From a virus (lineage: Duplodnaviria; Heunggongvirae; Uroviricota; Caudoviricetes), in the IMG/VR virus record IMGVR_UViG_2877251553_000008: 52,923 bases of DNA. One strand, written 5' to 3'. Position 1 is the first letter of the stretch, and each line of letters begins with the position of its first letter. The notes below the pieces were generated by a model, which was not told the DNA's origin, searched no databases, and saw nothing but the letters and a program-made list of their open reading frames with translations. The position numbers and the translations under genes are program-made. This document shows, piece by piece, positions 222 to 37,314 of the stretch.

Positions 222-289
222 ATGGCGCTTTACACAATTGGTGAAGTGGCGTTGCTTTGTGATATTAACCCTGTCACGTTACGCGCGTG
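222..289 (+). pseudogene. mlrA: mlrA (yehV) 5' fragment, truncated by prophage integration
   Basis: ATG at 222 encodes MALYTIGEVALLCDINPVTLRA, the MerR-type HTH N-terminus recalled for MlrA; the frame hits TGA at 288-290 where similarity ends, taken as the host/prophage junction. Confidence 0.6.
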
Positions 290-448
290 ACGCAACATTT
301 TTAAAAATCGACGAAGACCGTCCAGGAGCGCCGTTTTTCAAGGGTTGGATAGATGATTCGTTTACCATGTCGACGAACTTCGACGAATTTCGCCGATAAA
401 AAGTGTCCCATACATGCCCCATTGATGCCCCATAAACAATATCAGGAA

Positions 449-499
449 TTGACACTGGTTATCCATACAGATAAAAATAACACCTGTACATAACTACAG
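449..499 (+). promoter_or_regulatory. sigma70-like promoter with overlapping LexA (SOS) box for the dinI-like gene
   Basis: TTGACA at 449-454, 17-bp spacer, TAAAAA at 472-477; perfect SOS-box pattern CTGT-N8-ACAG (CTGTACATAACTACAG) at 484-499; AGGAGG at 503-508, ATG at 515. Confidence 0.75.
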
Positions 500-514
500 T
501 TACAGGAGGGTGTT

Positions 515-763
515 ATGCGTGTTGAGATCTGTATCGCTAAAGAAAAAATCACTAAAATGCCAAACGGTGCTGTGGATGCGTTAAAGGAAGAATTAACCCG
601 ACGCATCAGTAAACGTTATGACGATGTAGAGGTGATCGTAAAAGCCACCAGCAACGATGGCCTTTCTGTTACGCGCACCGCCGATAAAGATTCAGCTAAA
701 ACTTTTGTTCAGGAGACTCTGAAAGATACCTGGAAGTCTGCTGACGAGTGGTTTTTTCACTAA
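515..763 (+). CDS. dinI: DinI-family DNA damage-inducible protein
   Basis: 82-aa [14 protein letters not shown]...[11 protein letters not shown] matches the DinI family in length and conserved C-terminus (ETWxSADxWF); preceded by a LexA box. Confidence 0.85.
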
Positions 764-1079
764 TTAACACGTAAAATCGGTAACGGCTGGAAATCATTCA
801 ATACTCGCACTATCGAAAGTTCGCCAGCCAGCCGTGGCACGTTCTTGCATACGACGTGCTACGGTTTCATTCATCTCCGACCGGAAACTTCTTATACAAA
901 GTCGATACGCCAACATCATAGATGATCACCACCTTCTGGCGAGAAACTCCTGATGCAATTTGTCGTCCGGCCTGTGCCTATTGCTCCGGCGTGAGAGTAA
1001 TACAGTAAACTGTAGAAAAAGCCCATTAAACCTAATATAATAATAAGTTACAGAATTATCTTTACTGAATAATAGATAT

Positions 1080-1625
1080 ATGAATATTAGTGAACTTAAA
1101 AAGTGTATACACTATGAAGTAATAGGTTGTAAACGCCCTTTCTCCTGGCGAAAAGCAATTGTTCGCGCAATAAAACACAGAAGATCACGTTATTTATTTT
1201 GGTGGCGCATAGCAAAATATCTTTTTGATAAAGGCGGATACCGGCGAAAGATTGCAGGAAAAATAGAACGCTTCATTCTTGATAAATACAATGTAACCGT
1301 TCCCTTAACTGTAAATATTGGTAAAGGGTTCGACATATCTTATCTCAATGGCGTTGTTATCGGTCACAAAGTTACAATAGGTGAAAATTGTTCAATTAAG
1401 CCTGGGGTAACTATTGGACTTCGCGGTGAATTTAATGATATGGATATTGTCATAGGAAATAATGTAACCATTGGCTGTAACGCCACCATCCTTGGTGGCA
1501 AAGTGCATATAGGGAATAATGTAAAAATAGGAGCTCATGCATTGGTACTGCATGACATTCCTGATGACTCCACATTCATTACCAAATTTCACTCTGAAAT
1601 TATTTATAATTCATCTCACACATAA
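1080..1625 (+). CDS. hexapeptide-repeat (left-handed beta-helix) acetyltransferase, CysE/WcaB-like
   Basis: 181-aa ORF with tandem hexapeptide repeats (VIGHKVTIGENCSI, VIGNNVTIGCNATI, GNNVKIGAHALV); markedly AT-rich compared with flanking phage DNA. Confidence 0.7.
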   Translation: MNISELKKCIHYEVIGCKRPFSWRKAIVRAIKHRRSRYLFWWRIAKYLFDKGGYRRKIAGKIERFILDKYNVTVPLTVNIGKGFDISYLNGVVIGHKVTIGENCSIKPGVTIGLRGEFNDMDIVIGNNVTIGCNATILGGKVHIGNNVKIGAHALVLHDIPDDSTFITKFHSEIIYNSSHT

Positions 1626-1635
1626 TTCCGTTTAA

Positions 1636-1893
1636 TCACAGCTCAGGCCATACGATATCCGGGGCTGTATTTATATCAATCCGACTCACTAATACCCGGT
1701 ATTTATTCCATGCCTCCAGCAACGATCTTTCTTCCTCCGTTGCGATTTCCAGATCTACAGCATCCTGCAGTGGCGCAATATACTCACTGAATTCCTGGAT
1801 ATAGAACTGTGTGGTGACGGTCTTCCAGCCATTCGGCTCCTGCTGTATCGAAGCATACCAGGCTATTTCAATATCGCTATGCTGCGGCAGCAT
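1636..1893 (-). pseudogene. tfa: tail fibre assembly protein Tfa, C-terminal fragment
   Basis: 85-aa ORF ...[45 protein letters not shown] matches the lambda Tfa C-terminus; an in-frame stop lies immediately upstream of the first Met. Confidence 0.7.
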
Positions 1894-2117
1894 TTAACCC
1901 CTTGTAATTCATCGCCATAATTGATTTAATTCACAAATAAAACCATAACATGGTGAAATCAATGAAAAAAAACACAGATGATGGGGCTAAAATTTACACA
2001 CCACTTACCCTAAAGCTTTATGACTGGTGGGTTTTGGGAGTATCAAATCGGCTTGCATGGGGGGTGATGCTGCCAACTTACTGATTTAGTGTATGATGGT
2101 GTTTTTGAGGTGCTCCA

Positions 2118-2393
2118 GTGGCTTCTGTTTCTATCAGCTGTCCCTCCTGTTCAGCTACTGACGGGGTGGTGCGTAACGGCAAAAGCACTGCCGGACATCA
2201 GCGCTATCTCTGCTCTCACTGCCGTAAAACATGGCAACTGCAGTTCACTTACACCGCTTCTCAACCCGGTACGCACCAGAAAATTATTGATATGGCCATG
2301 AATGGCGTTGGATGCCGGGCAACTGCACGCATTATGGGCGTTAGCCTCAACACGATTTTACGTCACTTAAAAAACTCAGGCCGCAGTCGGTAA
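2118..2393 (+). CDS. insA: IS1 InsA
   Basis: 91-aa [46 protein letters not shown]... Confidence 0.95.
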
Positions 2394-2815
2394 CCTCGCG
2401 CATACAGCCGGGCAGTGACGTCATCGTCTGCGCGGAAATGGACGAACAGTGGGGATACGTCGGGGCTAAATCGCGCCAGCGCTGGCTGTTTTACGCGTAT
2501 GACAGGCTCCGGAAGACGGTTGTTGCGCACGTATTCGGTGAACGCACTATGGCGACGCTGGGGCGTCTTATGAGCTTGCTGTCACCCTTTGAAGTGGTGA
2601 TATGGATGACGGATGGCTGGCCACTGTATGAATCCCGCCTGAAGGGAAAGCTGCACGTAATCAGCAAGCGATATACGCAGCGAATTGAGCGGCATAACCT
2701 GAATCTGAGGCAGCACCTGGCACGGCTGGGACGGAAGTCGCTGTCGTTCTCAAAATCGGTGGAGCTGCATGACAAAGTCATCGGGCATTATCTGAACATA
2801 AAACACTATCAATAA
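2312..2815 (+). CDS. insB: IS1 InsB (made as InsAB' by -1 frameshift at A6C)
   Basis: C-terminal part ...[22 protein letters not shown]...HYLNIKHYQ; start coordinate approximate. Confidence 0.85.
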
Positions 2816-3261
2816 GTTGGAGTCATTACCTGCATGGGGATGTCCTACAAAGGAACACCTTCTTCCACACTTTCTGGAACATGTAGGTAACAACCATCTG
2901 GATATTGGTGTTGGAACTGGGTTTTACCTTACTCACGTACCTGAGAGTAGTCTGATATCTTTAATGGATTTGAACGAAGCTAGTCTGAACGCGGCATCTA
3001 CAAGGGCTGGGGAATCAAAAATTAAACATAAAATTAGCCATGATGTTTTTGAACCTTATCCCGCGGCGTTACATGGTCAATTTGATTCCATTTCCATGTT
3101 TTACCTTCTTCACTGCCTGCCTGGAAATATATCTACAAAAAGCTGTGTAATACGCAATGCGGCGCAGGCGTAAGCGTACAGCCTGAACCGTCTGGTCAGA
3201 ATCTGACGAATTAGACAAAGTGGTGTCCACCAAATAAGTAGTGGGAACCAAAGTGTCAGAT

Positions 3262-3641
3262 ATGCAGAAAAATGTGAATCCCGGCAGGCGAAAAGGCTGC
3301 CCTAATTATCCTCCCGAATTTAAACAGCAGCTCGTTGCTGCCTCCTGTGAACCCGGGATATCCATCTCAAAACTTGCTCTGAAAATGGCATTAACGCCAA
3401 TCTGTTGTTCAAATGGCGACAACAATGGCGCGAGGGAAAGCTGCTATTACCTTCTTCAGAGAGCCCCCAGCTACTTCCTGTGACTCTCGATGCAGCTGCC
3501 GAACAGCCAGAATCGCTCGCAGAGGATCCGGAAACCCTCAGTATCAGCTGTGAGGTAACGTTCCGGCACGGGACGCTCCGCTTCAATGGCAATGTCAGCG
3601 AAAAGCTCCTGACTCTGCTGATACAGGAACTGAAGCGATGA
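3262..3641 (+). pseudogene. IS66-family orfA (TnpA), frameshifted
   Basis: Two overlapping frames (3241..3483 and 3405..3641) together give ...PEFKQQLVAASCEPGISISKLAL / FKWRQQWREGKLLLP...; one base missing near 3380-3385. Confidence 0.7.
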
Positions 3642-3985
3642 TCCCGTTACCTTCCGGGACCAAAATTTGGCTGGTTGCCGGTATCACCGATATGAGAAAT
3701 GGCTTCAACGGCCTGGCGGCAAAGGTGCAGACGACGCTGAAAGACGCTCCGATGTCAGGTCACGTTTTTATCTTCCGTGGGCGTAATGGCAGTCAGGTAA
3801 AGCTCCTCTGGTCTACCGGCGATGGACTGTGTCTGCTGACCAAACGGCTGGAGCGCGGCCGCTTCGCCTGGCCGTCAGCCCGGGATGGCAAAGTGTTCCT
3901 CACACCGGCACAGCTGGCGATGCTCCTTGAAGGTATCGGCTGGCGGCAGCCTAAAAGACTGCTTACGTCCCTGACTATGTTGTAA
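3638..3985 (+). CDS. IS66-family orfB (TnpB)
   Basis: 115-aa ORF MIPLPSGTKIWLVAGITDMRNGFNGLAAKV..., start overlaps the orfA stop (ATGA). Confidence 0.8.
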   Translation: MIPLPSGTKIWLVAGITDMRNGFNGLAAKVQTTLKDAPMSGHVFIFRGRNGSQVKLLWSTGDGLCLLTKRLERGRFAWPSARDGKVFLTPAQLAMLLEGIGWRQPKRLLTSLTML

Positions 3986-4033
3986 GCCTCTTTATCCTGG
4001 TCGACGCTGAATGAGCCTGGTAATATACCCGGT

Positions 4034-5572
4034 ATGAGCAGCTCACTTCCTGACGATATCAATGCACTGAAACGTCTCCTTGCCGAACAGGAGGCGCTGA
4101 ACCGTGCCCTGCTGGAAAAGCTGAACGAGCGTGAACGCGAAATAGACCATCTGCAGGCACAGCTGGATAAGCTGCGCCGGACGAACTTCGGCAGCCGCTC
4201 CGAAAAAGTCTCCCGTCGTATCGCACAGATGGAAGCTGACCTGAAGGCACTTCAGAAAGAAAGTGATACCCTTACCGGTCGGGTTGACGACCCGGCCGTG
4301 CAGCGCCCGCTGCGTCAAACCCGCACCCGCAAACCGTTCCCCGAATCACTCCCCCGCGATGAAAAACGGCTGCTGCCGGCAGCGTCATGCTGCCCGGAAT
4401 GTGGAGGCTCACTGAGCTATCCGGGTGAGGATGCCGCCGAACAGCTGGAGTTGATGCGCAGCGTCTTCCGGGTTATCCGGACTGTACGTGAAAAGCATGC
4501 CTGTACTCAGTGCGATGCCATCGTGCAGGCCCCCGCGCCTTCACGGCCCATCGAGCGGGGTATCGCAGGACCGGGGCTGCTGGCCCGCGTGCTGATCTCA
4601 AAGTATGCAGAGCACACCCCGCTGTACCGCCAGTCTGAAATGTACGGCCGCCAGGGCGTGGAGCTGAGTCGTTCACTGCTGTCGGGCTGGGTGGATGCAT
4701 GCTGCCGGCTACTGTCACCGCTGGAAGAAGCGCTTCAGGACTATGTGCTGACTGACGGTAAGCTCCATGCTGATGACACGCCTGTCCCGGTGCTGTTGCC
4801 AGGCAATAAGAAAACGAAGACCGGGCGGTTATGGACCTACGTTCGTGACGACCGTAACGCCGGGTCAACGCTGGCGCCGGCGGTGTGGTTCGCTTACAGC
4901 CCGGACAGAAAAGGCATCCATCCGCAGACCCATCTTGCGGGGTTCAGTGGTGTACTGCAGGCGGATGCATACGCCGGGTTCAACGAGCTGTACCGGGATG
5001 GCCGGATAACGGAAGCCGCCTGTTGGGCTCACGCCCGCCGTAAAATCCACGATGTGCACGTTCGCACCCCGTCAGCCCTGACGGAGGAAGCGCTGAAACG
5101 GATCGGCGAACTGTACGCCATCGAGGCAGAGATAAGGGGAATGACGGCGGAGCAGCGCCTTGCCGAACGTCAGTTGAAAACGAAACCGCTGCTGAAATCC
5201 CTGGAAAGCTGGCTGCGTGAAAAGATGAAAACCCTGTCGCGACACTCAGAACTGGCGAAAGCGTTCGCATACGCCCTGAACCAGTGGCCGGCGCTGACGT
5301 ACTATGCAGATGATGGCTGGGCTGAGGCGGACAATAACATCGCTGAAAATGCGTTGCGGATGGTCAGTCTGGGCCGCAAAAACTACCTGTTCTTCGGTTC
5401 GGATCATGGAGGAGAGCGGGGAGCGCTGCTGTACAGCCTGATCGGGACGTGCAAACTGAACGGAGTGGAGCCAGAAAGCTACCTCCGCTATGTACTTGAC
5501 GTCATAGCCGACTGGCCGATAAACCGGGTCGGCGAACTGCTCCCCTGGCGCGTAGCACTGCCGACTGAATAA
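4034..5572 (+). CDS. IS66-family transposase (orfC)
   Basis: 512-aa ORF with N-terminal coiled-coil and zinc-finger Cys pairs (CCPECG...CTQC), typical of IS66 TnpC. Confidence 0.85.
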
Positions 5573-5609
5573 CACATCCCCGTCAATACGGTTCTTGCTG
5601 CACGCTTAC

Positions 5610-5857
5610 AACTGTTACGACAACGCTCCGATGGAAAGCTTCTGGGGAACGCTGAAAAATGAGAGCCTGAGCCACTATCGTTTTAATAACCGGGATGAAG
5701 CCATCTCAGTAATACGGGAATACATTGAGATTTTCTACAATCGTCAGCGTCGTCACTCTCGTCTGGGGAATATCTCCCCGGCAGCCTTCAGGGAAAAATA
5801 TCATCAGATGGCTGCTTAAAAAAAGAACAAATGGTAGTGTCCGCTATTGCCAGTACA
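5610..5857 (+). mobile_element. IS3-family element, 3'-terminal fragment (orfB C-terminus plus right inverted repeat)
   Basis: In-frame ...NCYDNAPMESFWGTLKNE...YNRQRRHSRLGNISPAAF (end of a DDE transposase) ending 5819; terminal repeat GGTAGTGTCCGCTATTGCCAGTACA at 5833-5857; 5' part replaced by the IS66-family element. Confidence 0.7.
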
Positions 5858-6538
5858 CCTCATGTGGTTTGGGTTCGTAGTCGCTCTGAACTTGCGTTTC
5901 TGCTTACAGCGTAGCCTTAGCTCCTTACGAAGACGTGCCAGTCGGTCACGACCAACGATGATGCCATTCTCTGCCAGCTCCGTCTGGAGCCGCCGGGTTC
6001 CATATGTTTCGCGAGTGCGGATATGTGCCACCTTAATCTCCAGTTTTAGCCGCTCATCACTTTGTTTTCTGTCTGAGGGTTCATGCTGTACCCAGTTGTA
6101 ATAACCGCTCCTGGATACACCAAATACCTGACACATCGCTTCAATGGGAAATTGTTGTCGCCATTGTTCGATTAACGCGTATTTTTCAGCGACTCCTGTG
6201 CAAAATACGCTGTTGCTTTTTTTAATATATCTCGCTCAAGGCGAGCTTCATTTAACGCCTTACGCAGTTGCAGAATTTCAGATTCCAGTTCAGCCACCGT
6301 GCGGGAACCAGGAGTACCGAGCCCTTTTCTGGCGGCGGTAACCCATTGTCCTAAAGTGCCTTCAGGAAGGGATAATCGGGAAGCGCCTTCACTGATCGAA
6401 AGTTGATTTTCAAGAACCGTTCTGACAGCTTCGGCTTTGAACTCTTTAGAGTAACGTTGGTTTTTTCTGCTCATTATTAGCTCCTTCTGATGCCATTCTA
6501 TTTCAGGAAGGAGTGTCCGTTAAACTCAGGCTACCTCA
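5858..6538 (-). mobile_element. IS3-family element (IS600-like), 5' fragment with orfA and the first ~95 codons of orfB
   Basis: orfA at 6172..6474 (MSRKNQRYSKEFKAEAVRTVLENQLSISEGASRLSLPEG...); orfB N-terminus MCQVFGVSRSGYYNW... loses similarity at 5858 where the opposite-strand fragment abuts; left end ...CTACCTCA at 6538. Confidence 0.7.
6172..6474 (-). CDS. IS3-family orfA (IS600-like)
   Basis: 100-aa ORF with HTH and leucine-zipper-like C-terminus (ELESEILQLRKALNEARLERDILKKATAYFA). Confidence 0.8.
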   Translation of the reverse strand: MSRKNQRYSKEFKAEAVRTVLENQLSISEGASRLSLPEGTLGQWVTAARKGLGTPGSRTVAELESEILQLRKALNEARLERDILKKATAYFAQESLKNTR

Positions 6539-6587
6539 GTTCAACGGTTTTTGGATTACCTGCGACAATGTTTTTTAAATGCTGCAT
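6539..6587 (-). pseudogene. tfa: tfa 5' fragment (first 16 codons), cut by the IS3-family fragment
   Basis: ATG 3 nt downstream of the stf stop encodes MQHLKNIVAGNPKTVE, a Tfa-type N-terminus, then runs into the IS end at 6538. Confidence 0.55.
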
Positions 6588-6589
6588 GA

Positions 6590-9394: not shown

Positions 9395-9411
9395 ACTTTC
9401 CACCAATAAAA

Positions 9412-9440
9412 AAAGCCCGCAGCAGTGACGCCACGGGCTT
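9412..9440 (-). terminator. putative intrinsic terminator downstream of lom
   Basis: Minus-strand hairpin AGCCCG...CGGGCT followed by a T7 tract; the loop is long (~14 nt), so strength is uncertain. Confidence 0.4.
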
Positions 9441-9544
9441 CAGGACAGTGTAACTTTACGTTTCCTCAAACGCAGTTCACCCCATAAGGTGGATGAACCT
9501 GCGTATCATAACAATATTTACAGAAGATAAATCGGCGTCTGTTG

Positions 9545-10144: not shown

Positions 10145-10211
10145 AATTACCTCTCGCTTTTCTGCAATAAAAAAGGCGCCATTTCTGGCGCCCGTATCTG
10201 GGTTATAAAAT

Positions 10212-13200
10212 TCAGCTAATCGTGATGCCTGCAGTGGCTTTCTTCATCACCACAACCAGCAAATCGCTGATACTTGCTGTGGGATACCAGTTATTTACCA
10301 GCCATGCTGACACCGAAAACTCCAGTGTCATGTGACCGTGACCGGCAGGCATATCAATAACACCACTGTAAATCAGCGTATTATCCAGCGCGGTACGGTT
10401 ATAAATTTCAGCACCGTTTTTCCGCACTATCAGACGGCATGAGGAGTAAATATCAGTATGCTCTTTCTCATGTTTAGCGCCGCTGAATGCCACCGCCGGA
10501 ATAACAATCTGCCGGTCAAACGGCTGATCGTCATAAACCCTGACGGTAATGGTTCCTGATGGCCACCGCTCCGGTGCACGGGAGTCCCGGGGAAAGCTTT
10601 GCCCACTGTTTTAACGAGATCGCCTTCAATCTGGTTCGCGGACAATTTTCCCAGAACCCGACAGTTCTCGTTAATCGTGACGTTGTTGAGCGTCCCGGAG
10701 TTCGCATTCACGTTACCGCTGATATCGGCATTTTTCGCCGTCAGCCGCCCGTCCGGTGTCAGGGAAAATGCCGGAGGATTACCGCCGCTGGTAATGGTGG
10801 GAGCCGTCAGATATTTCAGGAACACTTCATTCATAAATATCTGATCGCCCTGACCAACAAACATCGGCTTTGTGTTGCCATTCGCAGGATTAATCATCGC
10901 AATCCTGTCTGCCGCCAGCAGCACCTGACTCTGCATTCCTGCTGGCGTATTCTCAATACCGGCATCGATACCCGCAATATAAAGGCGTCCGTCCTGCATC
11001 TGCTGCAGTTTCACGGCCCACATGCTGTTCAGGTTATTATTTGTATCAACCTGAACTTTCTGTATCTGCTGGATTGCCGCACTCTGATTTTCCAGTTTTT
11101 TATTGACGGTCTGCGTGATTTCATTGCTGACATTCGTAATGGACGTCCTGATTTCAGCCAGGTCCGGCGCAAGCTGACCGTTATCAATCTGCGTCCACAG
11201 CTCCTGGGCCAGATGTGTTTTCCCGATTTCTCCTTTGAAGAAATCCAGGTAACCTTCCGCATCATCGCTCGCCCGACCGACAGCCTCCACGAATGCCGAT
11301 TTGCCAACAGTATTCACACTGCGGATATAAAAATAATAATCATGGCCCGGTTTGATATTGATACTGGCAGCTATCCAGTACAGCGCCGAGCCAAGATAGC
11401 GGGCTGCGGTTTCAACCTGCCTGATATCCGCAATCCGCTTTTCCGAGAACCAGAACTCAAACTGTACCGTCGGGTAATAAACGGCAAGATGCGGCGTGGC
11501 GGTTATCTGAAAATAGCCCGGCGTCAGTTCAATGGTGGCGGGTTTTGCTGGCGCGTTAATCCGGAAGGTGGTGGTGGCCGGTTCGCCCTGCTGGCCATAA
11601 CTGTTAATTGCCCTGACTGTCAGGGTGTATTCCCCGAGCGGCAGACCACTGAAACGATGCTCTGTATCCGCAGTGATAGCGGTGGTCACCAGACGGCTGT
11701 CTTCTCCGCTTCCGCTGGTCAGTCGCAGACTGAAGCGCCCCCCTTCACCACCCGCGGCGTGTCCCATTTCGCCTGTGCCAGATACTGGCCGTCAGCTGCG
11801 CTCACCTCCACCGTCAGGTGCTGCACTGCCGGTGGGATGACGCTGTTCAGGGAGCCTGACTGCGGCTCAAAGCGGGCACCGTTATCCACGATGGCTTCTT
11901 TTTCCGGTACGTGCTGCACCGCCGTGATGGCAAAGGTGCCGTCCGTGTTTTCCCGGACGGAGACACAGCGGAACAGGCGACGGCGCAGTGACGGCAGGGA
12001 GAGTCCCCACACCCCGTATGTCTCCACACCATCAGGCAGGGTACTGACCTGTATCCGGTCCGGCGCGGGGTGTGCGGTGATGTCCACACTCACCGGCTTA
12101 CCGCTGCCGTTAATCAGGTTCACCGCCGATGTACCTGTCTCCGGCAGGGTAACCTCACGGTCCAGCGTCAGGGTGCGGGTGGCAGCATCAATGGACAGGA
12201 CACGTCCGCCGGTCATAGTCCCGGCATAGTCGTTATCACAGATTTCAATAATGTCACCCGGTGTGTGACGCAGCCCCTGTGACCCGAGCGTGAAGTCCAC
12301 CGTCTGCGTTTCCAGCAGTCCGGTCTTTATCACCCACAGACCTGCACGGTGAGCCTGACCGCGGCAGGTACAGCCAAACGCATCCATCTTCAGCAGGTTG
12401 CGTCCGTAGCGCAGTATGGCTTCCGGGTCTTCCACCAGTTCCGTGGAGGTCTGCCAGCCGTTCTGCGGGTCGGTGTAATTCACCTCCACCGCCGTGTGCC
12501 GGTCCTTCAGGGCACTGAAGCTGTAGCGGAATCCCACGCCGTTATCATCCACCACCACATCGCTGTTGGTGTACGGCCACACCACATCCGACGGGCGGTC
12601 CTGAACGAACGTCAGCGTCTGACCGTTCCATACCGGCATACAGCGCATCGCAGAGCAGAAATCACTGAGAACGTCCCACGCCTTACGCTGTTGTGCCAGG
12701 TACGCATTAAAGGTCATCCGCGGCTCGGTCCCCCGAAACCATCCGGGACCGTCTGGTCGCAGTACTGCCCGATGGCATACAGCGCCCACTTGTCCACATC
12801 CGCCGCCCCAGACGTTTTCCCATGCCGTAGCGCGGGTGAGTCAGCATGTCCCACAGGCACCAGGCCGGGTTGTTGCTGTATGCCGGTTTCAGACTGCCGT
12901 CCCAGATACCACTGTACGTGCGTTTTTCCGGGTCATAGTTTGACGGCACCTGGATGATGCGACCGCGGATATGGTAGTTCACCGTCATCTGCTGGCCGCC
13001 GAACTGCTCCGCATCCACCTGCAGCCCCACAATGGCCGTGTTCGGGTAGCACTGTTTCACATCGATGATTTCGGTGTATGACGACCACAGCGTCTTATTC
13101 TGCAGCTGGTCCGTGGTGCTGTCCGCCGTCTCCCTGACCATCCGGATGTTAAAGGGCCGGGGAGGCAGATTATCCAGAATCACCGAGGCCAGGAACTGTG

Positions 13201-13681: not shown

Positions 13682-13784
13682 ACAGCCTTCCCCTGAATAA
13701 ATTAACCGCCACTTGCCATTCCGTACAGAAGTCGGATATCCTTCGCCCGAAAAGCATGAAACACATTTCTGCCATGCTAAAGAG

Positions 13785-13814
13785 AAACCCCGGTATCAGC
13801 AGATACCGGGGTTT
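13785..13814. other. strong 13-bp perfect stem-loop in the I-J insert
   Basis: AAACCCCGGTATC-agca-GATACCGGGGTTT, T-rich on both sides. Confidence 0.6.
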
Positions 13815-23751: not shown

Positions 23752-23787
23752 TTTGTTAAAACCTCATATTGATGGTCAGCACTGACT

Positions 23788-29030: not shown

Positions 29031-29508
29031 TGGAGGCTTTCGCGATTTCAGTTTTCACCACATCAAGGTGTGATGGTGAAATGTCCGGATATTTACGCTG
29101 TAATGTCAACGGCACACGCACAAGTATCCCCGAAATCTCCTGTGCCACACGTTGCAGAATGAAGGTAAACAGTTCAGTTTCCAGCACTACTCCGTCTTCA
29201 CGGGCATTTTTCAGTTCCTGCGCATCTGCCTGCACTTTTGTGAGCCGGTAGCGTTCATAGTCAATGGTGCCGGGTTGTAAATCTGACTCCGCTGCCGCAC
29301 GCAAATCGTCCAGTTCTTTGCGGAGCTTTTCGTTTTCGATATCAGTTTCCCTCTGCGCATACCACTGAATTGCCATGGCAGTATCAAATACAGATTCAAT
29401 GCCCTTACTACCTTTGGAGGCGCAAGGGAGTCCCTGAGACTGCCAGCGTTCAATCGTCCGCGGGTCCACGTTGAAAATTTCGGCAAGCCTCTTTTTATTA
29501 ACCTTCAT
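28960..29508 (-). CDS. Nu1: terminase small subunit Nu1
   Basis: 182-aa [36 protein letters not shown]...[30 protein letters not shown] matches lambda Nu1. Confidence 0.9.
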
Positions 29509-29684
29509 GAAAACAACCCATTATCAAATACAAGGCCCGACATGAAAACGCCAGAAAAAGGCATTTTCGGACACTTTCATGTCGGACCTTTACGGATGCA
29601 ATATTAAAAAAAACAAAAAGTTATATTCGAGAAGTACCGACACGATTTTCCCTGAAAAATTTTCATAAATAGTGAAAAACCGCG

Positions 29685-29696
29685 AGGTCGCCGCCC
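29685..29696 (-). other. cos cohesive-end site (cosN) with lambda-type cosB/cosQ flanks
   Basis: Reverse complement of 29685-29696 is GGGCGGCGACCT (lambda 12-nt cohesive end), followed on the minus strand by CGCGG..TTTCACTATTTATGAAAATTTT and preceded by ..GCGGGTCCTTTCCGGCGATCCGACAGGTTACG as at the lambda ends. Confidence 0.85.
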
Positions 29697-29895
29697 CGTA
29701 ACCTGTCGGATCGCCGGAAAGGACCCGCAAAATGATAATAATTATCATCTACATGTCACAACGTGCATCTACGCCATCAAACTACGTCAAATAATCAATT
29801 ATGACGCAGGTATCGTATTAATTGATCTGCATCAACTTAACGTAAAAACAACTTCAGACAATACAAATCAGCGACACTGAATACGGGGCAACCTC

Positions 29896-30090
29896 ATGTC
29901 AACGAAGAACAGAACCCGCAGAACAACAACCCGCAACATCCGCTTTCCTAACCAAATGATTGAACAAATTAACATCGCTCTTGAGCAAAAAGGGTCCGGG
30001 AATTTCTCAGCCTGGGTCATTGAAGCCTGCCGTCGGAGACTAACGTCAGAAAAGAGAGCATATACATCAATCCAAAGTGATGATGAATAA
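29896..30090 (+). CDS. YlcI-like small ribbon-helix-helix protein (DUF3950-type)
   Basis: 64-aa ORF with RHH-like pattern NIRFPNQMIEQINIALEQKGSGNFSAWVIEACRRRL; sits opposite the late genes between cos and the lysis cassette, as ylcI does in DLP12. Confidence 0.6.
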   Translation: MSTKNRTRRTTTRNIRFPNQMIEQINIALEQKGSGNFSAWVIEACRRRLTSEKRAYTSIQSDDE

Positions 30091-30283
30091 ACATCCCGGT
30101 TTCTTCCACCATCGCACCGGACAGGCGACTATGAGGGGACAACGCCGCGCTCCGTTAACGCGGTAAACCCCGGTGTGTATCGTTTTTGATTATCCCCGCA
30201 CACTCGCGCAGAGGAGTCTCCCTGTCGGGCTGCGGTCTCTGTTAATGAGGGAATACAGCGACGATACGGCGCATCAACAAAAC

Positions 30284-30750
30284 TTATTTCAGGCACTGAG
30301 TACGGATATATTCCTGCGCCCCTTCCAGTTGCTTCTGCATCGTCATCAGCCGCTCTCTGAGGGTGAAATAATCCCGTGTAACGGTGTCTGCCAGTCGGGG
30401 CCGGTTGCATTATCCACGCGGGCGGTGCCGGTGGCTTCACGCACGGGACCTGGACAGGTGGCGTTGATACGCAGGCGCTTACGACCAGCGGCAACGTCAG
30501 CGCGAAGAGTTTCATTTTCAGCTCTCGCATCGGCTAATTCCCTCGAGTATTTTGCATCGAGCGCAGCAACATCACGCTGACGCATCTGCATGTCAGTAAT
30601 TGCCGCGTTCGCCAGCTTCAGTTCTCTGACATTTTTGTCGCGCTGGGCTTTGTAGGTAATGGCGTTATCACGGTAATGATTCAGCCCCAGACTAAGCGCA
30701 CCACAGGCCACCAGCAGGGCAATGATGACCACGCACAGTACGCGGTTCAT
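30284..30750 (-). pseudogene. Rz: i-spanin Rz, frameshifted at 30397-30400
   Basis: [40 protein letters not shown]...VDNATGP then frame change; C-terminus [35 protein letters not shown] readable in the third frame. Confidence 0.8.
30346..30530 (-). pseudogene. Rz1: o-spanin Rz1, embedded in Rz in another frame, hit by the same frameshift
   Basis: N-terminus [22 protein letters not shown]...[15 protein letters not shown] in one frame; C-terminus [16 protein letters not shown] in the Rz frame; a single missing C in a C-run reconciles both genes. Confidence 0.7.
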
Positions 30751-30751
30751 T

Positions 30752-30850
30752 TCACCACCAGCGTATCTGACCGATGAAATAACCGGAGGCCATAATCACA
30801 AACACCAGCCAGATAAGAATGAACTTCCAGGTGGATAATTTTTCAGCCAT
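30752..30850 (-). CDS. candidate 32-aa single-pass membrane peptide between endolysin and Rz
   Basis: GGGAGA-N8-ATG start; [32 protein letters not shown]; stop TGA overlaps the Rz ATG (coupling); a longer 72-aa GTG-initiated version runs through a hairpin. Confidence 0.3.
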
Positions 30851-30925
30851 CACTCGAATCTCCCGAATCAGTTTGCTAAAATCAAACACACTTTCTCCTT
30901 TGACTTTTCCAGAGTCAGGAAACAC

Positions 30926-30958
30926 AAAACCCGCTTGCAGCCAACAAACGGGTTTTTT
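30926..30958. terminator. hairpin with T-rich flanks between R and Rz (possible bidirectional terminator)
   Basis: AAAACCCG-cttgcagccaacaaa-CGGGTTTTTT on the plus strand; the reverse complement is likewise followed by TTTTGTGTTT. Confidence 0.35.
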
Positions 30959-31047
30959 ACTTTTATTCACTTAGTTTTTGTCAGTTCGCAGGATTTCGTG
31001 TTATCCGTCCGTGTAAGCAAACCGCATTTTTCAGCAAAATATTCTGC

Positions 31048-31581
31048 TTATCTGTCGATACCCCAGCACGCCAGCGCGCTCTCCTGGTCACGACGGGATA
31101 CCTGACCGTAGCAGTTGTTTGAACGAATACGGCAGTCTCTGCCACCGTCCTTAATCCACCAGCGAATCGCCTCACACGCTCCCCTGCGATCACCTGCATT
31201 AATTCGTTTATAAAACGTCGACGGGAAACACTTACCGGGACCAATGTTGTACGGACAGAATGACGCGATCCCCGCTTTCTGGGGTTCGCTCAATGGCACT
31301 CTGATGTTTTTCTCCACCCATGCCAGCGCCTTATCACGCTCAATGGCGTTAACCCGGTCGCATTTTTCCTTCGACAACTTCATGCCCGGAACGACAGGTT
31401 TGCCATCCACCAGGATGGCACCGCGGCAGATGGTCCAGATACCCGCGCCATCACGGTATGCCGTGGTGTGGTTACCTTCCTTTTCATCCAGAAACTGGTC
31501 GAGAATGTCAGGCGCAGGCGCACCAGCGGCAATCAGCGCCAGAACGGCAGCCGACAGGCCGTATTTGATTTTGGTGTTCAT
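31048..31581 (-). CDS. R: SAR endolysin (phage lysozyme, GH24-type) R
   Basis: 177-aa ORF with N-terminal signal-anchor-release segment (YGLSAAVLALIAAGAPA) followed by a lysozyme domain (EGNHTTAYRDGAGIWTICRG...). Confidence 0.85.
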   Translation of the reverse strand: MNTKIKYGLSAAVLALIAAGAPAPDILDQFLDEKEGNHTTAYRDGAGIWTICRGAILVDGKPVVPGMKLSKEKCDRVNAIERDKALAWVEKNIRVPLSEPQKAGIASFCPYNIGPGKCFPSTFYKRINAGDRRGACEAIRWWIKDGGRDCRIRSNNCYGQVSRRDQESALACWGIDR

Positions 31582-31784
31582 GGATATATTAAATATTCAG
31601 CCGCTGTCCCTGGCCCACTAAATACGCACTTTAAGATAAGTCAGCCCCGGATGAAGCCAGTAAGCCGGCACTTTTTTAAAGGGTGGAGTATTAAAATCAC
31701 GAAGAAGAGCCTCCCGCACAATTGCATCCGGTAATGCTGCCAACTTACTGATTTAGTGTATGATGGTGATTTTAAGGTGCTTGC

Positions 31785-32060
31785 GTGGCTTCCATTTCCA
31801 TCAGATGTCCTTCCTGCTCCGCTACTGAAGGCGTGGTGCGTAACGGCAAAAGCACTGCCGGACATCAGCGCTATCTCTGCTCTCATTGCCGTAAAACATG
31901 GCAACTACAGTTCACTTACACCGCCTCTCAGCCCGGTACGCACCAGAAAATCATTGATATGGCCATGAATGGCGTCGGATGTCGCGCCAGTGCACGCATT
32001 ATGGGCGTTGGCCTCAACACGGTTTTACGTCACTTAAAAAACTCAGGCCGCAGTCGGTAA
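31785..32060 (+). CDS. insA: IS1 InsA
   Basis: 91-aa [43 protein letters not shown]... Confidence 0.95.
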
Positions 32061-32482
32061 CCTCGCGCATACAACCGGGCAGTGATGTGATTGTCTGCGC
32101 TGAAATGGACGAACAGTGGGGCTACGTCGGTGCTAAATCACGTCAGCGCTGGCTGTTTTACGCGTATGACAGGATACGGAGGACGGTTGTGGCGCACGTC
32201 TTCGGTGAACGCACTCTGGCCACACTGGAGCGTCTTCTGAGCCTGCTGTCGGCCTTTGAGGTCGTGGTATGGATGACGGATGGCTGGCCGCTGTATGAAT
32301 CACGCCTGAAGGGAAAGCTGCACGTTATCAGCAAGCGTTACACTCAGCGCATTGAGCGACATAATCTGAATCTGAGACAACATCTGGCAAGGCTGGGACG
32401 GAAGTCACTGTCGTTCTCAAAATCGGTGGAGCTGCATGACAAGGTCATCGGGCATTATCTGAACATAAAACACTATCAGTAA
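31979..32482 (+). CDS. insB: IS1 InsB
   Basis: 167-aa ORF ...[37 protein letters not shown]...HYLNIKHYQ. Confidence 0.9.
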
Positions 32483-33205
32483 GTTGGAGTCATTACCATT
32501 GCATCCTTATCAGCACCACTGGCCAGCGCTTCAATCTCAGCAGCTATCTGCAGATATCCCATGCAACGACCAATGCACTTCATCAGCCCCTGCTTTTTAT
32601 TGTTCTTCAGGTAATCAATGGCAAATTCAATGAGCGCCTCACTATGCTGGTGCGATGGCGGTGTTAATTTCCCATTTTCTGAGATGGTTATTTTCCCGCC
32701 ATCTCCGTATACAACAAAGGATGGCCGGTTACACTCCCATTCCTGATCTTTATCAGGTGCAGACGCAATAAAATAACGTTTATTTCCTTCCTCTCCGGCA
32801 CTTTTAACCGTAATGGAGTACTCAGACTGCAGACAAGACGCCTCTTTTTCTGACCGCAGTGTTGACGGCGGCATCTTCAGAGAACAAGTAATTATTCCCG
32901 GTAGTTTTCCTCTGTAGGTTATCAACACATCCTGCGCCTCTAAAATGATGGGGCGCTTTTCCTGCAACGGTTCGTTCCCTTCACATAACCCGGCAGCAAC
33001 ATCCATGAAAAACTGCTTCGCCTGCTTTTTCGCCTCCGCTTCGTAAAACTCCAGCTTGGCACCTTCAGTACGGTCAAGACTAATCGCCACATATGGCAAC
33101 AACAGTGACGGATACCCACCAATTTCCAGTGCCACAGTAACAGTAATCTTATCCGGGTAATTATTTATCCCTTTAACAACCAGTTCGTATTTTTTCTTCA
33201 TCACT

Positions 33206-33420
33206 TTACTCTCCCCGTACAGCCTTACGACGGTCCTCTCTGATTTTGAAATACAGGTTAGTCAGATATGTCAGCAGCCCAAACAGCAGACTCCCAGCAC
33301 GCCTATTGCCGCCCACTGAGACGGGGAAACCCTGTCCAGCAACTGCAGGAACCAGTAGCCCGTTCCCACCGCTGACGTGGTGTATGACACACCTGTTGTG
33401 ATTTTTTCCATCTGGTACAT
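33206..33420 (-). pseudogene. S: S21-like pinholin/antiholin with dual-start motif, frameshifted at 33293-33295
   Basis: [43 protein letters not shown] then frame change; remaining [28 protein letters not shown] readable in the adjacent frame; Met1 and Met4 give holin/antiholin starts. Confidence 0.8.
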
Positions 33421-33570
33421 ACCCCGTCTCCCGTTATCCGGAAGCTGACAACAATAAAAAAAGCCACCAGTTAAGTACTGATGGCTCTGATAACTCATGC
33501 AGGCATCTCAGACGACCCACTGACACTACCGGTGAGTTTAACGATACCTTCCATTTGACTGGCTCACTTT

Positions 33571-35465
33571 TTATGATGATGCCGGTGCATTTATCTCCAG
33601 CACCAGACTTTCTATCTCAACGCCATACGCTGCATTTTTGGTAATATCCGTCAGCGTCAGTGCATTTAGTCCCACTGCCAGACTGTCTTTTATGGCCTGG
33701 AATGCCGGGCCAGCCACTCCATTCAGTTTCGGAGTAACCGTGGCACTGCCGGCGGTGAACACCAGCTCCAGCGTCTGCCAGTCGTTACTGTAATTCCCGA
33801 ACTCGCCCAACTTTGTGTTTCCGGCTTTCTTGTGATGCATCAGATTCCGTTTGCCGTCTGTGGTCTGGGTGAAGAACGACATCAGGAACGGGTTACCAGT
33901 CCCGGTCATCGCCACGACGTCAGGTAACGCTACATCGGTATACAGATAAATTCCCAGACCGAACTGATTGTTGGTCAGTGCGCCTGACAGTCGAAACTTA
34001 CAGCTCAGTCTGCCACCCCGTGTCAGCAGGGAGACTGCGTCATCCACCGGGCGCGTCAGGGACCAGGCTTTATTGCTCTGCTTGGCGATCTTAAATACAC
34101 CACCCGACAACTGAATTCCGCCGTCCTTAATGGTCCAGCCCTGCGCAGCAGCCTCTCCGGCTGTCGGCAGCAGGGAGATTGTGCGAACGGACGTATCTGC
34201 AGACGGACCCGATGGCGTGTCGCCGCCGGGCGAGGGTTTGATTTCCGGTGCCTTACCACTGATGAAGGCTGAGGTGCGCCCGGCTGCGTTCAGAATAGCG
34301 GTTGCCATACGATCGGGAATAATGCCACGACGCGCCCATGAGCTGAAATTTGTCGGGCGATTTGATGATACCCAGTTTTTGTTCGTTCGGGATGCCGAAC
34401 CGTAATAACCAGACCCGACAATATCAGGATCTTCTGACGGGTTGTTTGTCGGTGTATTAACTCCGCTACCATCGGTCATAAAGGGAACAAAATAAATCTG
34501 CTGGGATTCTTTACCTTTATATGCACCATATACCACTTCATATTGCGTACCGTGTTCTTGTTTCCACGCGTATGTCGTGTCGCCACAAATCCAGGGGACT
34601 GTTGCCGGACTTCCACCGTGACACTGCGCCGCCAGCCCGGCAAGGTCAGCACGGAACTGCTGTACCATTGCAAGAAATGCTGCTGGCTGCTGGGCGTAAC
34701 TGGCATTCGTCATATCGAATTCCCCCTGCATCCAGCATATCGCCAGCAAAACGTTTTTCGGGTTTTTCTGCAATGCTGCCTTCGTGCGGAAAAGCAGATC
34801 CTGATATAACGGCTTACCCACTCCCCAGCGAGCCGAATCCTGACTGGCCCCCGTGGACTCGCTGAATGTCCCCTCCGTGCCCTGGGTGAATGCCGAACCA
34901 CCACGACAGCATGGTACCAGCAGGATCCCGCGTTATTAGGGATATACGGAAGCAGTTTTTTGGCAATATGTAAGCCCTGTCCGACACAGCCGTACTGCCC
35001 TTTGCTCAGGTCAGCCCGGGGATGGTTAATCGTACTCATATCCTGAACATCATGCAGACAATGGTCAGCAGGAATGATGTCGTTAAATACGCATACTTCA
35101 CCACCGGGAGTCACTGTGTTACGACGGGCCAGTTGCTTAATGCGCGGATGGGGCGCATCGTATGAATCCGGAAGCGGAAGCCCTTCACCGTAAGCCATGG
35201 CATTGGACTGCCCGGCCAGGGCAACAACAAATTAATACTCCGGGTTGCTGGTGGTGCTGATAACTGCGCCTTCTCCATCCGACGGCTTCACCACCACAGG
35301 TGTGGTGACATCACCTTCCGCCGCAATGGCCTGCATCAGGGTATAAGGCGTGATGGCCACCGGACTGCCAAATGGCTGCCACCCCTCCTTCAGTTTTTGT
35401 GTCAGTCGCTCCGCAAGGTCTGACGGCGACGCCGCCCTGACCACGTCATAGTGTTTAAATGCCAT
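33571..35465 (-). pseudogene. nanS-p: NanS-p-type sialate O-acetylesterase (DUF1737 plus SGNH esterase), two frameshifts
   Basis: Pieces MAFKHYDVVRAASPSDLAERLTQKLKEGWQPFGSPVAITPYTLMQAIAAEGD.. / ..NAMAYGEGLPLPDSYDAPHPRIKQLARRNT.. / ..MGKPLYQDLLFRTKAALQKNPKNVLLAICWMQGEFD...; typical position between stx/tRNAs and S in Stx phages. Confidence 0.75.
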
Positions 35466-35658
35466 AAATCCTCCCGGCCTGGATAATATTGTGAGTAAAA
35501 TGAGGAGCGGGCTGAAGTCCGGAAGTTACAGGACAATGGCAGAAGATAGACAACAGCCCGCAATATGAAAAAGGCCGCGCTATTGCGCAGAGTGATTACT
35601 GTCGGATATTATTCACCAGCTGAAATATTACTTCACGTTTTGTTGTTTATTCCTTGCC

Positions 35659-35687
35659 GCCCGCGTCTCCCAGCGCGGGCTTTTTTT
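35659..35687 (+). terminator. intrinsic terminator (plus strand)
   Basis: GCCCGCG-tctcccag-CGCGGGC followed by TTTTTTT. Confidence 0.6.
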
Positions 35688-35689
35688 GT

Positions 35690-35717
35690 CCATAAGAAAG
35701 CCCCTCCGGAGAGGGGC
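35690..35717 (-). terminator. intrinsic terminator (minus strand), downstream of the tRNA cluster
   Basis: Minus-strand hairpin GCCCCTC-tccg-GAGGGGC followed by TTTCTTAT. Confidence 0.5.
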
Positions 35718-35965
35718 TGGAGAGTGGCGCTATGTGCCATTGCATGGTGCCGGGTGCCTCCCGGTGAGTTCAGTATCAGCACCTGAACCCGCACAGAAAG
35801 GATAAGGGTCGGTGACAAAACACCAGTTGCTGATTGCCCTCCGCACAGGGGATTCACCATGCCAGTTTCTTTTAACAAACTCCCCGCAAACCAGACAACA
35901 GTCAACCGCCTGAATTGTGAGACATTTAAAAAAAGCCCGCAAAAGCGAGCCAGGGAAAATAAGTG

Positions 35966-36042
35966 TGGCGCGTTCTACTGTATTCGAACCAGTGACCGAT
36001 TGCTTAGAAGGCAATTGCTCTGTCCGGCTGAGCTAACAACGC
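35966..36042 (-). tRNA. argN: tRNA-Arg (anticodon UCU)
   Basis: Hand-folded cloverleaf: acceptor GCGTTGT, D-arm GCTC..GAGC, anticodon arm ATTGC-CTTCTAA-GCAAT, T-loop TTCGAAT, encoded CCA; one T-stem mismatch. Confidence 0.6.
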
Positions 36043-36058
36043 AGGATACAGATAATGA

Positions 36059-36132
36059 ACCGCCTTCGGGGACCCGAACTCCGCGCAACCAGCTTCGAAG
36101 GCTGGCGCTCTTTCCTGATGAGCTAATGGCGG
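36059..36132 (-). tRNA. tRNA-Arg-like (anticodon UCG by hand fold), possibly degenerate
   Basis: Acceptor CCGCCAT/AAGGCGG, D-arm GCTC..GAGC, anticodon arm CCAGC-CTTCGAA-GCTGG, T-loop TTCGGGT (G at position 58 is unusual), no encoded CCA. Confidence 0.4.
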
Positions 36133-36139
36133 TATGTGA

Positions 36140-36215
36140 TGGTGGCCCTTGCTGGATTTGAACCAGCGACCTGGCGATTATGAGTCGCTCGCTCTCACCA
36201 CTGAGCTAAAGGGCC
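36140..36215 (-). tRNA. ileZ: tRNA with CAU anticodon (Ile2 ileZ-type or Met)
   Basis: Perfect 7-bp acceptor stem GGCCCTT/AAGGGCC, D-arm, anticodon loop CTCATAA, T-arm GCTGG-TTCAAAT-CCAGC, encoded CCA. Confidence 0.75.
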
Positions 36216-36264
36216 GGGAGCAGAATAATAATGGTGCGTAATTAATTCTGCAATCTCATCCGTT

Positions 36265-37314
36265 TCAAACGATTAAATCCTGAACTTCCCTGACTGTCTG
36301 CTCAAAACGTCCGGTCTCCAGTTCAACGCCAATCGCACGACGCCCGAGCGCCAGTGCCGCTTTTACCGTTGAACCTGAGCCCATAAAAAAATCTGCAACC
36401 TGGTCTCCCGGACGACTGCTCGCGTTGATTATCTGCTGCAACATTTCTGCCGTTTTTTCGCACGGATGTTTCCCTGGATAGTACTGCACCGGTTTATACG
36501 TCCACACATCGGTGTACGGCACCTGCACCGTCACACCGAAATACCTCCGCAAATTTTTATATTCACTCTGCAGCTCCACATACTGCCGGCTCAGCTCACT
36601 GTATGTGCTGACCAGTTGGTAATGGGACTTTTCCAGTTCTCCCCGCTGATGTTTCTCTTCTGCCACCCGGGCAAACAGCGACTGTAATTTCAGATAATCG
36701 CTTTCGTTCGGTAGCTGCCACTGACTGGCACTGAACCAGTGCGACACCATGTTTTTCTTTCCTGTGGCATCTGCAATCTGTTTTGCCGTTATCCCCAGGG
36801 CAGCTCGCGCATCACGAAAGTAAGCAATCAGCGGGGCCATCACATGCTGTTTCAGTACCCTGCCCTTCGCCTCATAGCCATCATCTTTCGGGCGGTACGG
36901 CCCCTGATAATGTTCCGCGAACAGAATGCGCTCTGTGGCGGGGAAATACGCCCGCAGGCTTTCCTTGTTGCACCCGTTCCAGCGTCCGGACGGCTTTGCC
37001 CAGATAATATGGTTCAGCACACTGAAGCGTTCACGCATCATGATTTCGATATCAGATGCCAGGCGATGACCACAGAACAGGTAAAGACTTCCGGCAGGTT
37101 TCAGCACCCGCCAGAACTGCGCCAGACACTGGTCCAGCCACTTCAGGTAATCATCGTCGCCCTTCCACTGGTTATCCCAGCCCTCAGGCTTCACTTTAAA
37201 GTACGGCGGGTCCGTGACTATCAGGTCAACAGAATTTTCGGGTAACGACCGGATAAATTCCAGGCAGTCGGCGTTGATTAACTCACAACTGGATATTTTT
37301 ACAGTATTAGCCAT
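36265..37314 (-). CDS. DNA N6-adenine methyltransferase (DPPY motif)
   Basis: 349-aa ORF with DLIVTDPPYF catalytic motif and C-terminal SAM-binding FFMGSGSTVKAA. Confidence 0.85.
   Translation of the reverse strand: MANTVKISSCELINADCLEFIRSLPENSVDLIVTDPPYFKVKPEGWDNQWKGDDDYLKWLDQCLAQFWRVLKPAGSLYLFCGHRLASDIEIMMRERFSVLNHIIWAKPSGRWNGCNKESLRAYFPATERILFAEHYQGPYRPKDDGYEAKGRVLKQHVMAPLIAYFRDARAALGITAKQIADATGKKNMVSHWFSASQWQLPNESDYLKLQSLFARVAEEKHQRGELEKSHYQLVSTYSELSRQYVELQSEYKNLRRYFGVTVQVPYTDVWTYKPVQYYPGKHPCEKTAEMLQQIINASSRPGDQVADFFMGSGSTVKAALALGRRAIGVELETGRFEQTVREVQDLIV

Follow-up and report, generated by a model that had tools for sequence, protein, structure and literature searches.

The 52,923-nt stretch of DNA analyzed here (IMG/VR virus record IMGVR_UViG_2877251553_000008; referred to below, at its full length, as the window) carries a lambdoid prophage of ~52.6 kb and mosaic make-up, running from position 290 to the integrase stop codon at 52923. 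The prophage lies in the mlrA (yehV) gene of a Shigella chromosome, and we consider it very probable that it is, in its late module, a toxin-free sibling of the phages that carry the Shiga toxin (Stx) genes and that it most likely never carried stx. An earlier interpretation of the same DNA, made from the letters alone (the sequence-only reading), had described an Stx-phage-like scaffold without stx that was either a precursor or an stx-lost derivative. What looks like a hole at the stx locus is better understood as a very common late module in its normal, toxin-free state. Because the gap holds predicted regulatory small-RNA genes, it provides no evidence of toxin loss, and the prophage is one more example of a well-known kind, this time in Shigella.

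The stx position is unoccupied

When Stx1A, Stx1B, Stx2A, and Stx2B were used as tblastn queries against the window, the best match had an E value of 0.5, in agreement with the absence of stx already noted in the sequence-only reading. Of the features that define an Stx-converting phage, stxA and stxB are thus missing, whereas the late architecture (Q, late promoter and terminator, tRNAs, cargo, nanS-p, and lysis cassette) is present.

The position at which stx would be expected had been placed at a pair of convergent hairpins between the tRNA cluster and nanS-p. Alignment of the window to Stx2_95 and the Oslovirus Stx2_EC3283, two unrelated Stx2a phages, moved it elsewhere. In both, the left-hand and right-hand homologies join at window base 35924, where the Stx2a phages have an extra 1331 bp carrying stx2A and stx2B, with a G+C content of 44%, compared with 53% in the flanks. 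Over the interval from 35466 to 35965, comparison with stx-flanking sequence therefore yielded a single junction and no deletion scar. Neither tblastn nor the alignment to the two Stx2a phages revealed any stx remnant at the junction, and no direct or inverted repeats, which were sought as a sign of a transposon or of deletion between repeats, were found at the ends of the stx2 cassette.

A different cassette enters at nearly the same place in Escherichia coli JE86-ST05, in which 749 bp encoding terB and a DUF3927 protein lie at 35928 to 35932, 5 to 8 nt from the stx2 position. In an alignment of nine sequences, the stx-free, stx1, stx2, and terB alleles were homologous from TCACAATTCAG (~35918) toward the small-RNA gene STnc100 and unrelated upstream of it. 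STnc100 itself starts 75 nt past stx2B in Stx2_95 and 79 nt past stx1B in the O157:H7 Stx1 prophage YYZ-2008 (NC_011356), an arrangement that agrees with a published description (PMC12370729). The common point at which homology begins, together with the single region of entry for stx2 and terB, thus marks a boundary between modules at which different cargo can be accepted. Alignments to the Stx2a phages and JE86-ST05 place this cargo position at 35924 to 35932, between the terminator past tRNA-Arg and STnc100, and in the prophage studied here it is unoccupied. The boundaries of the stx2 cassette are in this way fixed to one nucleotide relative to the empty site, which is useful for the design of junction PCRs that tell occupied from unoccupied sites.

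The prophage most likely never carried stx

The frequency of the empty site was determined among 5426 complete E. coli genomes with a 251-nt query centered on the junction, for which a contiguous match was required. The same unoccupied tRNA/STnc100 junction was present in 1007 of them (~19%), at 94 to 99% identity, and among the genomes that bear it are those of O157:H7 and O111:H8 strains, in which it is part of non-Stx prophages. An earlier 681-nt query, 80% of which could be covered one-sidedly by Stx2 phages, had given ~1000 genomes, and the shorter query agreed with it. At the junction, stx-free relatives are 96 to 99% identical to the window (the spacer of the stx-free phage PhiR5_1, for example, is 96.6% identical), whereas the flanks are only 79 to 92% identical to the two Stx2a phages that were aligned.

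These observations bear directly on the proposal that stx once lay at ~35924 and that the cassette was cleanly lost, for instance, by recombination with an stx-free sibling prophage. Such a history would sit well with an integrase and attachment site that are those of O157:H7 Stx1 phages, with a right half that is nearest, among sequenced phages, to Stx2a and Stx1a phages, and with the presence of sibling prophages carrying the same late module in the same genome; because the module boundaries are shared, an exchange of this kind would leave no scar. We nevertheless regard it as unlikely, given the lack of an stx remnant, the greater similarity of the flanks to stx-free relatives than to the aligned Stx2a phages, and an empty configuration so frequent that no special event is required to explain it. 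The "stx-lost" half of the sequence-only reading thus gained no positive support.

The other half, a direct precursor belonging to the lineage in which stx was first inserted, is hardly credible. It is true that the empty position matches the boundaries of the stx2 cassette and that the lower G+C content of the cassette is what would be expected of acquired DNA. However, about a thousand other prophages qualify equally well, this copy is riddled with insertion sequences (ISs) and resident in Shigella, and its flanks have diverged by 8 to 21% from the aligned Stx2 phages. Nothing marks it as ancestral. The term "precursor" therefore holds loosely, in the sense of an acceptor scaffold, and not beyond that.

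A toxin-free sibling whose cargo position was never occupied remains, in our assessment, the most likely account. Three points weigh against it. A scar-free junction cannot by itself distinguish a site that was never occupied from loss by exchange with an stx-free sibling; at least one more lambdoid prophage in the same genome has the same methylase gene and an stx-free spacer, which would make homologous exchange easy; and the organism names used here come from protein names in a cluster table and not from the record.

That second prophage (CP026807.1, 820844 to 841893) has an identical methylase and an stx-free tRNA/nanS-p spacer. A further lambdoid prophage on the same Shigella chromosome (CP026807.1, 1490203 to 1507795) has an identical portal protein. 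As judged from these sequences, the two would be ready partners for inter-prophage recombination.

Host and relatives

The host was assigned from sequence matches. Proteins identical to the tail fiber, methylase, and acetyltransferase of the prophage are named for Shigella dysenteriae, Shigella boydii (UniProt B2TVY8_SHIB3), or, as a multispecies entry, Shigella, and an identical prophage with the same IS insertions is found in the Shigella assemblies CP026807.1, CP045784.1, CP026834.1, and AKNG01. These matches place the host in the S. dysenteriae/S. boydii lineage of Shigella.

The two halves of the prophage have different affinities. For the head and tail half (~6.6 to 29.5 kb), the phages that match best are the stx-free PhiR5_1, phage 21, and ev017 (87 to 93% identity over 72 to 79%), whereas for the regulatory half (29 to 52.9 kb) the best phage records are long-tailed Stx2a and Stx1a phages (~87 to 91% over 50 to 56%). 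The likeness to Stx phages asserted in the sequence-only reading therefore applies to the right half, while the head and tail half matches non-Stx phages like lambda and phage 21. Even in the right half, the best match overall is a prophage without stx, that in mlrA of E. coli 266917_2 (96.4% over 76%), which is the closest overall relative. The proposed "Stx-phage signature" is present (methylase, three tRNAs, nanS-p, S21 holin, and SAR-type [signal-anchor-release] endolysin, collinear with Stx2a phages) but unspecific, because the same empty tRNA/STnc100 junction also occurs in the 1007 genomes counted above and in stx-free phages grown on laboratory E. coli hosts.

Among the Stx2a phages, the long-tailed Stx2_95 and Stx2_12E129_yecE (LC5678xx) and Stx2_EC3283 are collinear with the window through Q, the methylase, three tRNAs, STnc100, nanS-p, and the holin and cover 50 to 56% of its right half at ~90%; they differ in the stx2AB cassette at 35924 and in their head and tail genes. 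YYZ-2008 shares the integrase, the 21-bp repeat of the attachment site, and an STnc100 gene that follows the cargo, and its xis, nanS-p, and lysis genes are similar. However, its stx1AB genes come straight after Q, with neither the methylase gene nor the tRNA cluster, and only ~13 kb aligns with the window, at 88%. The stx-free PhiR5_1/PhiR12 series and Nil3 have the same STnc100 spacer at 93 to 97% identity, and in PhiR5_1 the likeness extends to the lambda-like head and tail genes (92% over 79%), but all differ in Q and the early regions, and PhiR5_1 lacks the tRNA/methylase block. PhiR5_1 had been propagated on E. coli C; the source of Nil3 was O157:H7.

Prophages without stx are well documented in yehV, for example, in strain TW14359 (PMC8309913). 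Those of E. coli O157:H7 and other E. coli strains that produce Shiga toxin (STEC) share the site, the core, and the lambdoid organization with the prophage studied here, and O157:H7 strain TR01 has an stx-free prophage at the same mlrA junction. The present prophage differs from this group in its Shigella host, its mosaic composition, and its IS load. A Shigella lineage thus combines an mlrA integrase of the O157 type with a late region that resembles an acceptor, and the attachment site is therefore used outside STEC.

Integration in mlrA

The left end of the window is host DNA. Positions 1 to 221 (plus strand) are the btsS-mlrA intergenic region, and positions 222 to 289 (plus strand) are the 5' fragment of mlrA, comprising codons 1 to 22 and ending in a stop codon that is completed by the first phage base. 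When aligned with K-12 MG1655 (2646 to 2934 of the fetched locus, which is the btsS-mlrA spacer plus nucleotides 1 to 68 of mlrA), window positions 1 to 289 matched at 286 of 289 positions (99%), and the K-12 homology broke off exactly at 289. The translation of 222 to 287, MALYTIGEVALLCDINPVTLRA, is that of MlrA residues 1 to 22 and is followed by the stop. In TR01, btsS lies directly upstream of the same spacer, and the Prokaryotic Genome Annotation Pipeline treats the stretch equivalent to 222 to 289 as a partial coding sequence.

Host sequence closes with the 21 nt CCCTGTCACGTTACGCGCGTG (269 to 289), which form the copy of the attachment-site core at the int-distal junction and are identical to the direct repeat marked at the ends of the annotated YYZ-2008 prophage; a second copy of the core sits past int in E. 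coli 266917_2. At the opposite end of the prophage lie the excisionase gene (51349 to 51603, plus strand; 100% amino acid identity to xis of 266917_2) and the gene for a tyrosine integrase specific for the mlrA site (51637 to 52923, plus strand), the 428-residue product of which matches the YYZ-2008 integrase at 426 positions and the stop codon of which is the end of the window. The remainder of mlrA begins 20 bp past int both in CP026807.1, an assembly of the same lineage, and in 266917_2, and is followed by yohO, yehW, yehX, and yehY. The left junction is common to 469 of the 5426 complete E. coli genomes. The end of K-12 homology at 289, the matches to the YYZ-2008 repeat and integrase, and the shared left junction thus bear out the sequence-only reading on both the mlrA placement and the use of a site known from O157 Stx1 prophages.

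In our reading, an integrase nearly identical to those of the O157:H7 Stx1 phages directed insertion at the 21-bp core, within codons 16 to 23 of mlrA. The gene, which encodes a MerR-type regulator, is thereby severed after codon 22. Past int, in two loci just beyond the right end of the window (L003, 28577 to 29278; L024, 7308 to 8009), phage sequence runs on into the mlrA core without a change of frame, and gene callers hence annotate a 233-residue "MlrA" with a phage-supplied N terminus and a nonstandard start codon, from whose MerR-type DNA-binding domain the first helix is missing.

The sequence-only reading had also drawn attention to curli regulation. An effect of mlrA (yehV) prophages on curli is established for E. 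coli O157, and mlrA supplied in trans restored the phenotype in some non-O157 strains (PMC3874044). In a Shigella host, the regulatory consequence of mlrA disruption is probably minor because Shigella curli clusters usually contain pseudogenes already (PMC6854044).

Predicted small-RNA genes in the tRNA-nanS-p spacer

The sequence-only reading had found in the place of stx only ~500 bp with two convergent terminators. Both hairpins are indeed terminator-like sites, but the interval from 35466 to 35965 also carries an STnc100 gene and a candidate small-RNA gene. The spacer follows a tRNA cluster (35966 to 36215, minus strand) for Ile2(CAU), Arg(UCG), and Arg(UCU), the first of which ARAGORN calls Met and RefSeq annotates as tRNA-Ile in homologous loci. 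A terminator-like hairpin just past tRNA-Arg (35934 to 35951, minus strand) is conserved in Stx2 phages.

On the far side of the cargo position lies STnc100 (RF02076; 35688 to 35891, minus strand), which matched all 206 positions of the Rfam model at 130.4 bits (gathering score, 47) and which ends in a terminator formed by the minus-strand hairpin at 35718 to 35699. Its first hairpin contains two single-base under-calls. The published position of the STnc100/PasD family, downstream of the stx slot and upstream of the sialate esterase gene (bioRxiv 10.64898/2026.05.13.724894; PMC12370729), is kept here, with the difference that the predicted gene directly follows the tRNA terminator; STnc100 has been reported in STEC vesicles (PMC12370729). 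A promoter-like sequence at 35870 to 35898 (minus strand; −35 TTGTCT, 17-nt spacer, −10 TTAAAA) keeps the same place in the stx-free, stx1, and stx2 alleles. Should it serve as the promoter of STnc100, the transcription start would fall near 35863, and promoter DNA would then make up the first ~30 positions of the Rfam model.

Convergent with STnc100, at the position occupied in other phages by AgvB, is a candidate gene for a small RNA of ~70 nt (35583 to 35690, plus strand). It consists of a putative promoter (−35 TTGCGC, 18 nt, −10 TATTAT), a G/U-rich body, and a terminator (35659 to 35680) with a run of seven U's, and its predicted fold has a z score of −2.5. It shares the promoter region with the Rfam AgvB loci of YYZ-2008 and PPyecE_EH1910, which are likewise convergent with STnc100, but the body differs. 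Stx2a phages, PhiR5_1, and E. coli JE86-ST05 carry the same allele as the window. An Rfam search of 35540 to 35700 returned only subthreshold noise and no AgvB (RF02702) match at E values up to 10, and a literature search with strings of the candidate sequence found nothing.

We put forward tentatively, as ideas that we think rather doubtful, that 35924 to 35932 is a discrete, reusable cargo position and, separately, that the candidate ~70-nt transcript from 35619 to 35690 (plus strand) is an undescribed allele that replaces AgvB and has a G/U-rich seed. Two unrelated cassettes, stx2AB and terB/DUF3927, entered at the cargo position within ~8 nt of each other; a reusable position of this kind would imply a directed mechanism of insertion or exchange in place of scattered illegitimate recombination.

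Most frameshifts are sequencing artifacts

By tblastn, ~20 genes in the window are split across reading frames, including those for J, K, the tape measure, T, the capsid, the terminase, Rz, the holin, NanS-p, Q, DnaB, and CI. Taken at face value, this would mean a remnant in an advanced state of decay, its Q, cI, holin, J, terminase, dnaB, and nanS-p genes all frameshifted. Comparison with better assemblies of the same prophage makes that very improbable. CP026807.1 is 99.93% identical to the window over 21,050 bp, and the window differs from it by 3 substitutions and 12 single-base deletions, all of the latter in C or G runs. Counted over the whole prophage against the other assemblies, the single-base indels number 28; in 27 of them it is the window that lacks the base, and 23 fall within runs of C or G. 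Examples of single-base differences are those at 10593, 11744, 12735, 27591, 33296, 34930, 35840, 35848, 39736, 41979, and 47049.

The source assembly, as this pattern indicates, under-calls C and G homopolymers. The under-calls at 33296 (a C run, in the holin gene), 39736 (a G run, in Q), and 47049 (a G run, in cI) are of this kind, and an extra frameshift in nanS-p at 34930 is likewise an artifact. Because the indels have the pattern of homopolymer under-calling and the genes are intact elsewhere, we regard the frameshifts as artifactual; a dead prophage with pseudogenized Q, cI, holin gene, and nanS-p was considered and rejected after comparison with CP026807, CP045784, and AKNG01. Left uncorrected, the homopolymer errors would lead annotators to ~20 false pseudogenes.

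Insertion sequences and other true lesions

The lesions that are real, in that the assemblies share them, are two copies of IS1, an IS66-family element with IS3-type remnants, IS2, IS911, and a TAA codon in nanS-p. One IS1 (2063 to 2831, plus strand; matching the IS1 of TR01, with InsA and InsB Pfam domains) interrupts a cargo gene resembling S-adenosylmethionine-dependent methyltransferases and is flanked by the 9-bp target duplication TGCATGGGG. The other (31729 to 32497) lies in a DUF1327 gene between the holin and endolysin genes, with the 9-bp duplication ATTGCATCC. The IS66-family element has three open reading frames (ORFs), which span 3262 to 5572 (plus strand; NF033517, 466 bits, with TnpB_IS66 and HTH_Tnp_1 neighbors).

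The two remaining elements have no target duplication. IS2 (38104 to 39434, plus strand; NF006918 IS2 TnpB, 728 bits) adjoins Q and stands in place of ~0.5 kb of a WYL-domain gene that is present next to Q in 266917_2. An IS3-family element (47678 to 48926, minus strand; NF033516, 300 bits), which we take to be IS911 from its ends and OrfA sequence, stands in place of ~1.9 kb of early-left genes present in 266917_2. The absence of duplications and the replacement of sequence suggest that both elements mediated deletions. The core genes of the prophage are intact in the better assemblies. Since insertions of IS1, IS2, IS911, and IS66 have broken accessory genes and cost the prophage some short stretches of sequence, it is probably not freely inducible.

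Other genes of the prophage

Lambda-like tail and head genes occupy 6590 to 29508 (minus strand), as identified by tblastn against annotated homologues and by Pfam matches in loci of the same lineage. They encode the side tail fiber, Lom, J, I, K, L, M, the tape measure (H), G/T, V, U, Z, FII, FI, E, D, C, the portal, W, terminase A, and Nu1. The tail-fiber assembly gene expected past the side tail fiber gene is missing, and IS3-type remnants (5816 to 6474) and the IS66 element are found instead; its sole leftover is an 85-residue Caudo_TAP fragment at 1636 to 1893.

The lysis cassette is of the S21 holin/SAR endolysin type, as judged by Pfam matches in the locus of identical lineage. It comprises an Rz-type gene (30287 to 30741, minus strand; PF03245), the gene for a SAR-like endolysin (31048 to 31581, minus strand; PF00959), residues 8 to 24 of which appear by inspection to be a hydrophobic, Ala/Gly-rich N-terminal segment, and a class II (S21-type) holin gene (33209 to 33420, minus strand; PF04971), the 71-residue product of which is intact in CP026807. 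Upstream lies the sialate O-acetylesterase gene nanS-p (33571 to 35465, minus strand), in which the DUF1737, SASA, and DUF6645 domains are all represented; in every assembly of the prophage, the TAA codon at 35234 to 35232 splits it into a 77-residue DUF1737 part and a 542-residue SASA/DUF6645 part.

On the other side of the tRNA cluster are the gene for an N6/N4 DNA methyltransferase (36265 to 37314, minus strand; PF01555; 95% amino acid identity to the 266917_2 homologue) and, past a probable late promoter, pR', a probable late terminator, tR' (37790 to 37815, minus strand), both read from the sequence in a region collinear with the Q-proximal region of Stx2_95. The gene for antiterminator Q (39448 to 39839, minus strand) encodes 130 amino acids, 99% identical to Q of 266917_2, and is intact in CP026807. 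The late operon is ordered as follows: Q, IS2, the probable pR'/tR', a small ORF, the methylase gene, three tRNA genes, the terminator, the cargo position, STnc100, the convergent candidate small RNA, nanS-p, holin, endolysin, and Rz.

The early-right genes (39857 to 44481, minus strand) encode a DUF968 protein, a DnaB-type helicase, a helicase-loader ATPase, an HTH_36 replication protein, and small ORFs. Next to them are two Rha-family regulator genes, the first of which also has an Ash domain, and a cro-like gene (44669 to 46560, minus strand). Rfam matches to C4 antisense RNA (79 bits) and isrK (56 bits) at 45275 to 45463 (minus strand) lie over the 5' end of the Rha/Ash gene (44669 to 45520), and the ensemble looks like an antirepressor control module in the style of P1 and P7; YYZ-2008 has the C4/isrK pair as well. 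The LexA-family (S24 peptidase) repressor gene, cI (46672 to 47327, plus strand), has 100% amino acid identity on either side of the under-called G run at 47049 and encodes an intact protein of 218 residues in CP026807.

Near the host junction, a DinI-like gene (515 to 763, plus strand) encodes a protein with 96% amino acid identity to its counterpart in TR01 and with a PF06183 match in the locus of the same lineage. Between this gene and the tail-fiber assembly remnant lies a cargo gene of 36% G+C for a hexapeptide-repeat acetyltransferase of 181 amino acids (1080 to 1625, plus strand; Hexapep Pfam matches). The protein scored under every NCBIfam cutoff, with EpsC as the best match (85 bits versus 150), and an identical protein is named as a serine acetyltransferase of S. 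boydii; it may be a surface-polysaccharide-modifying cargo protein.

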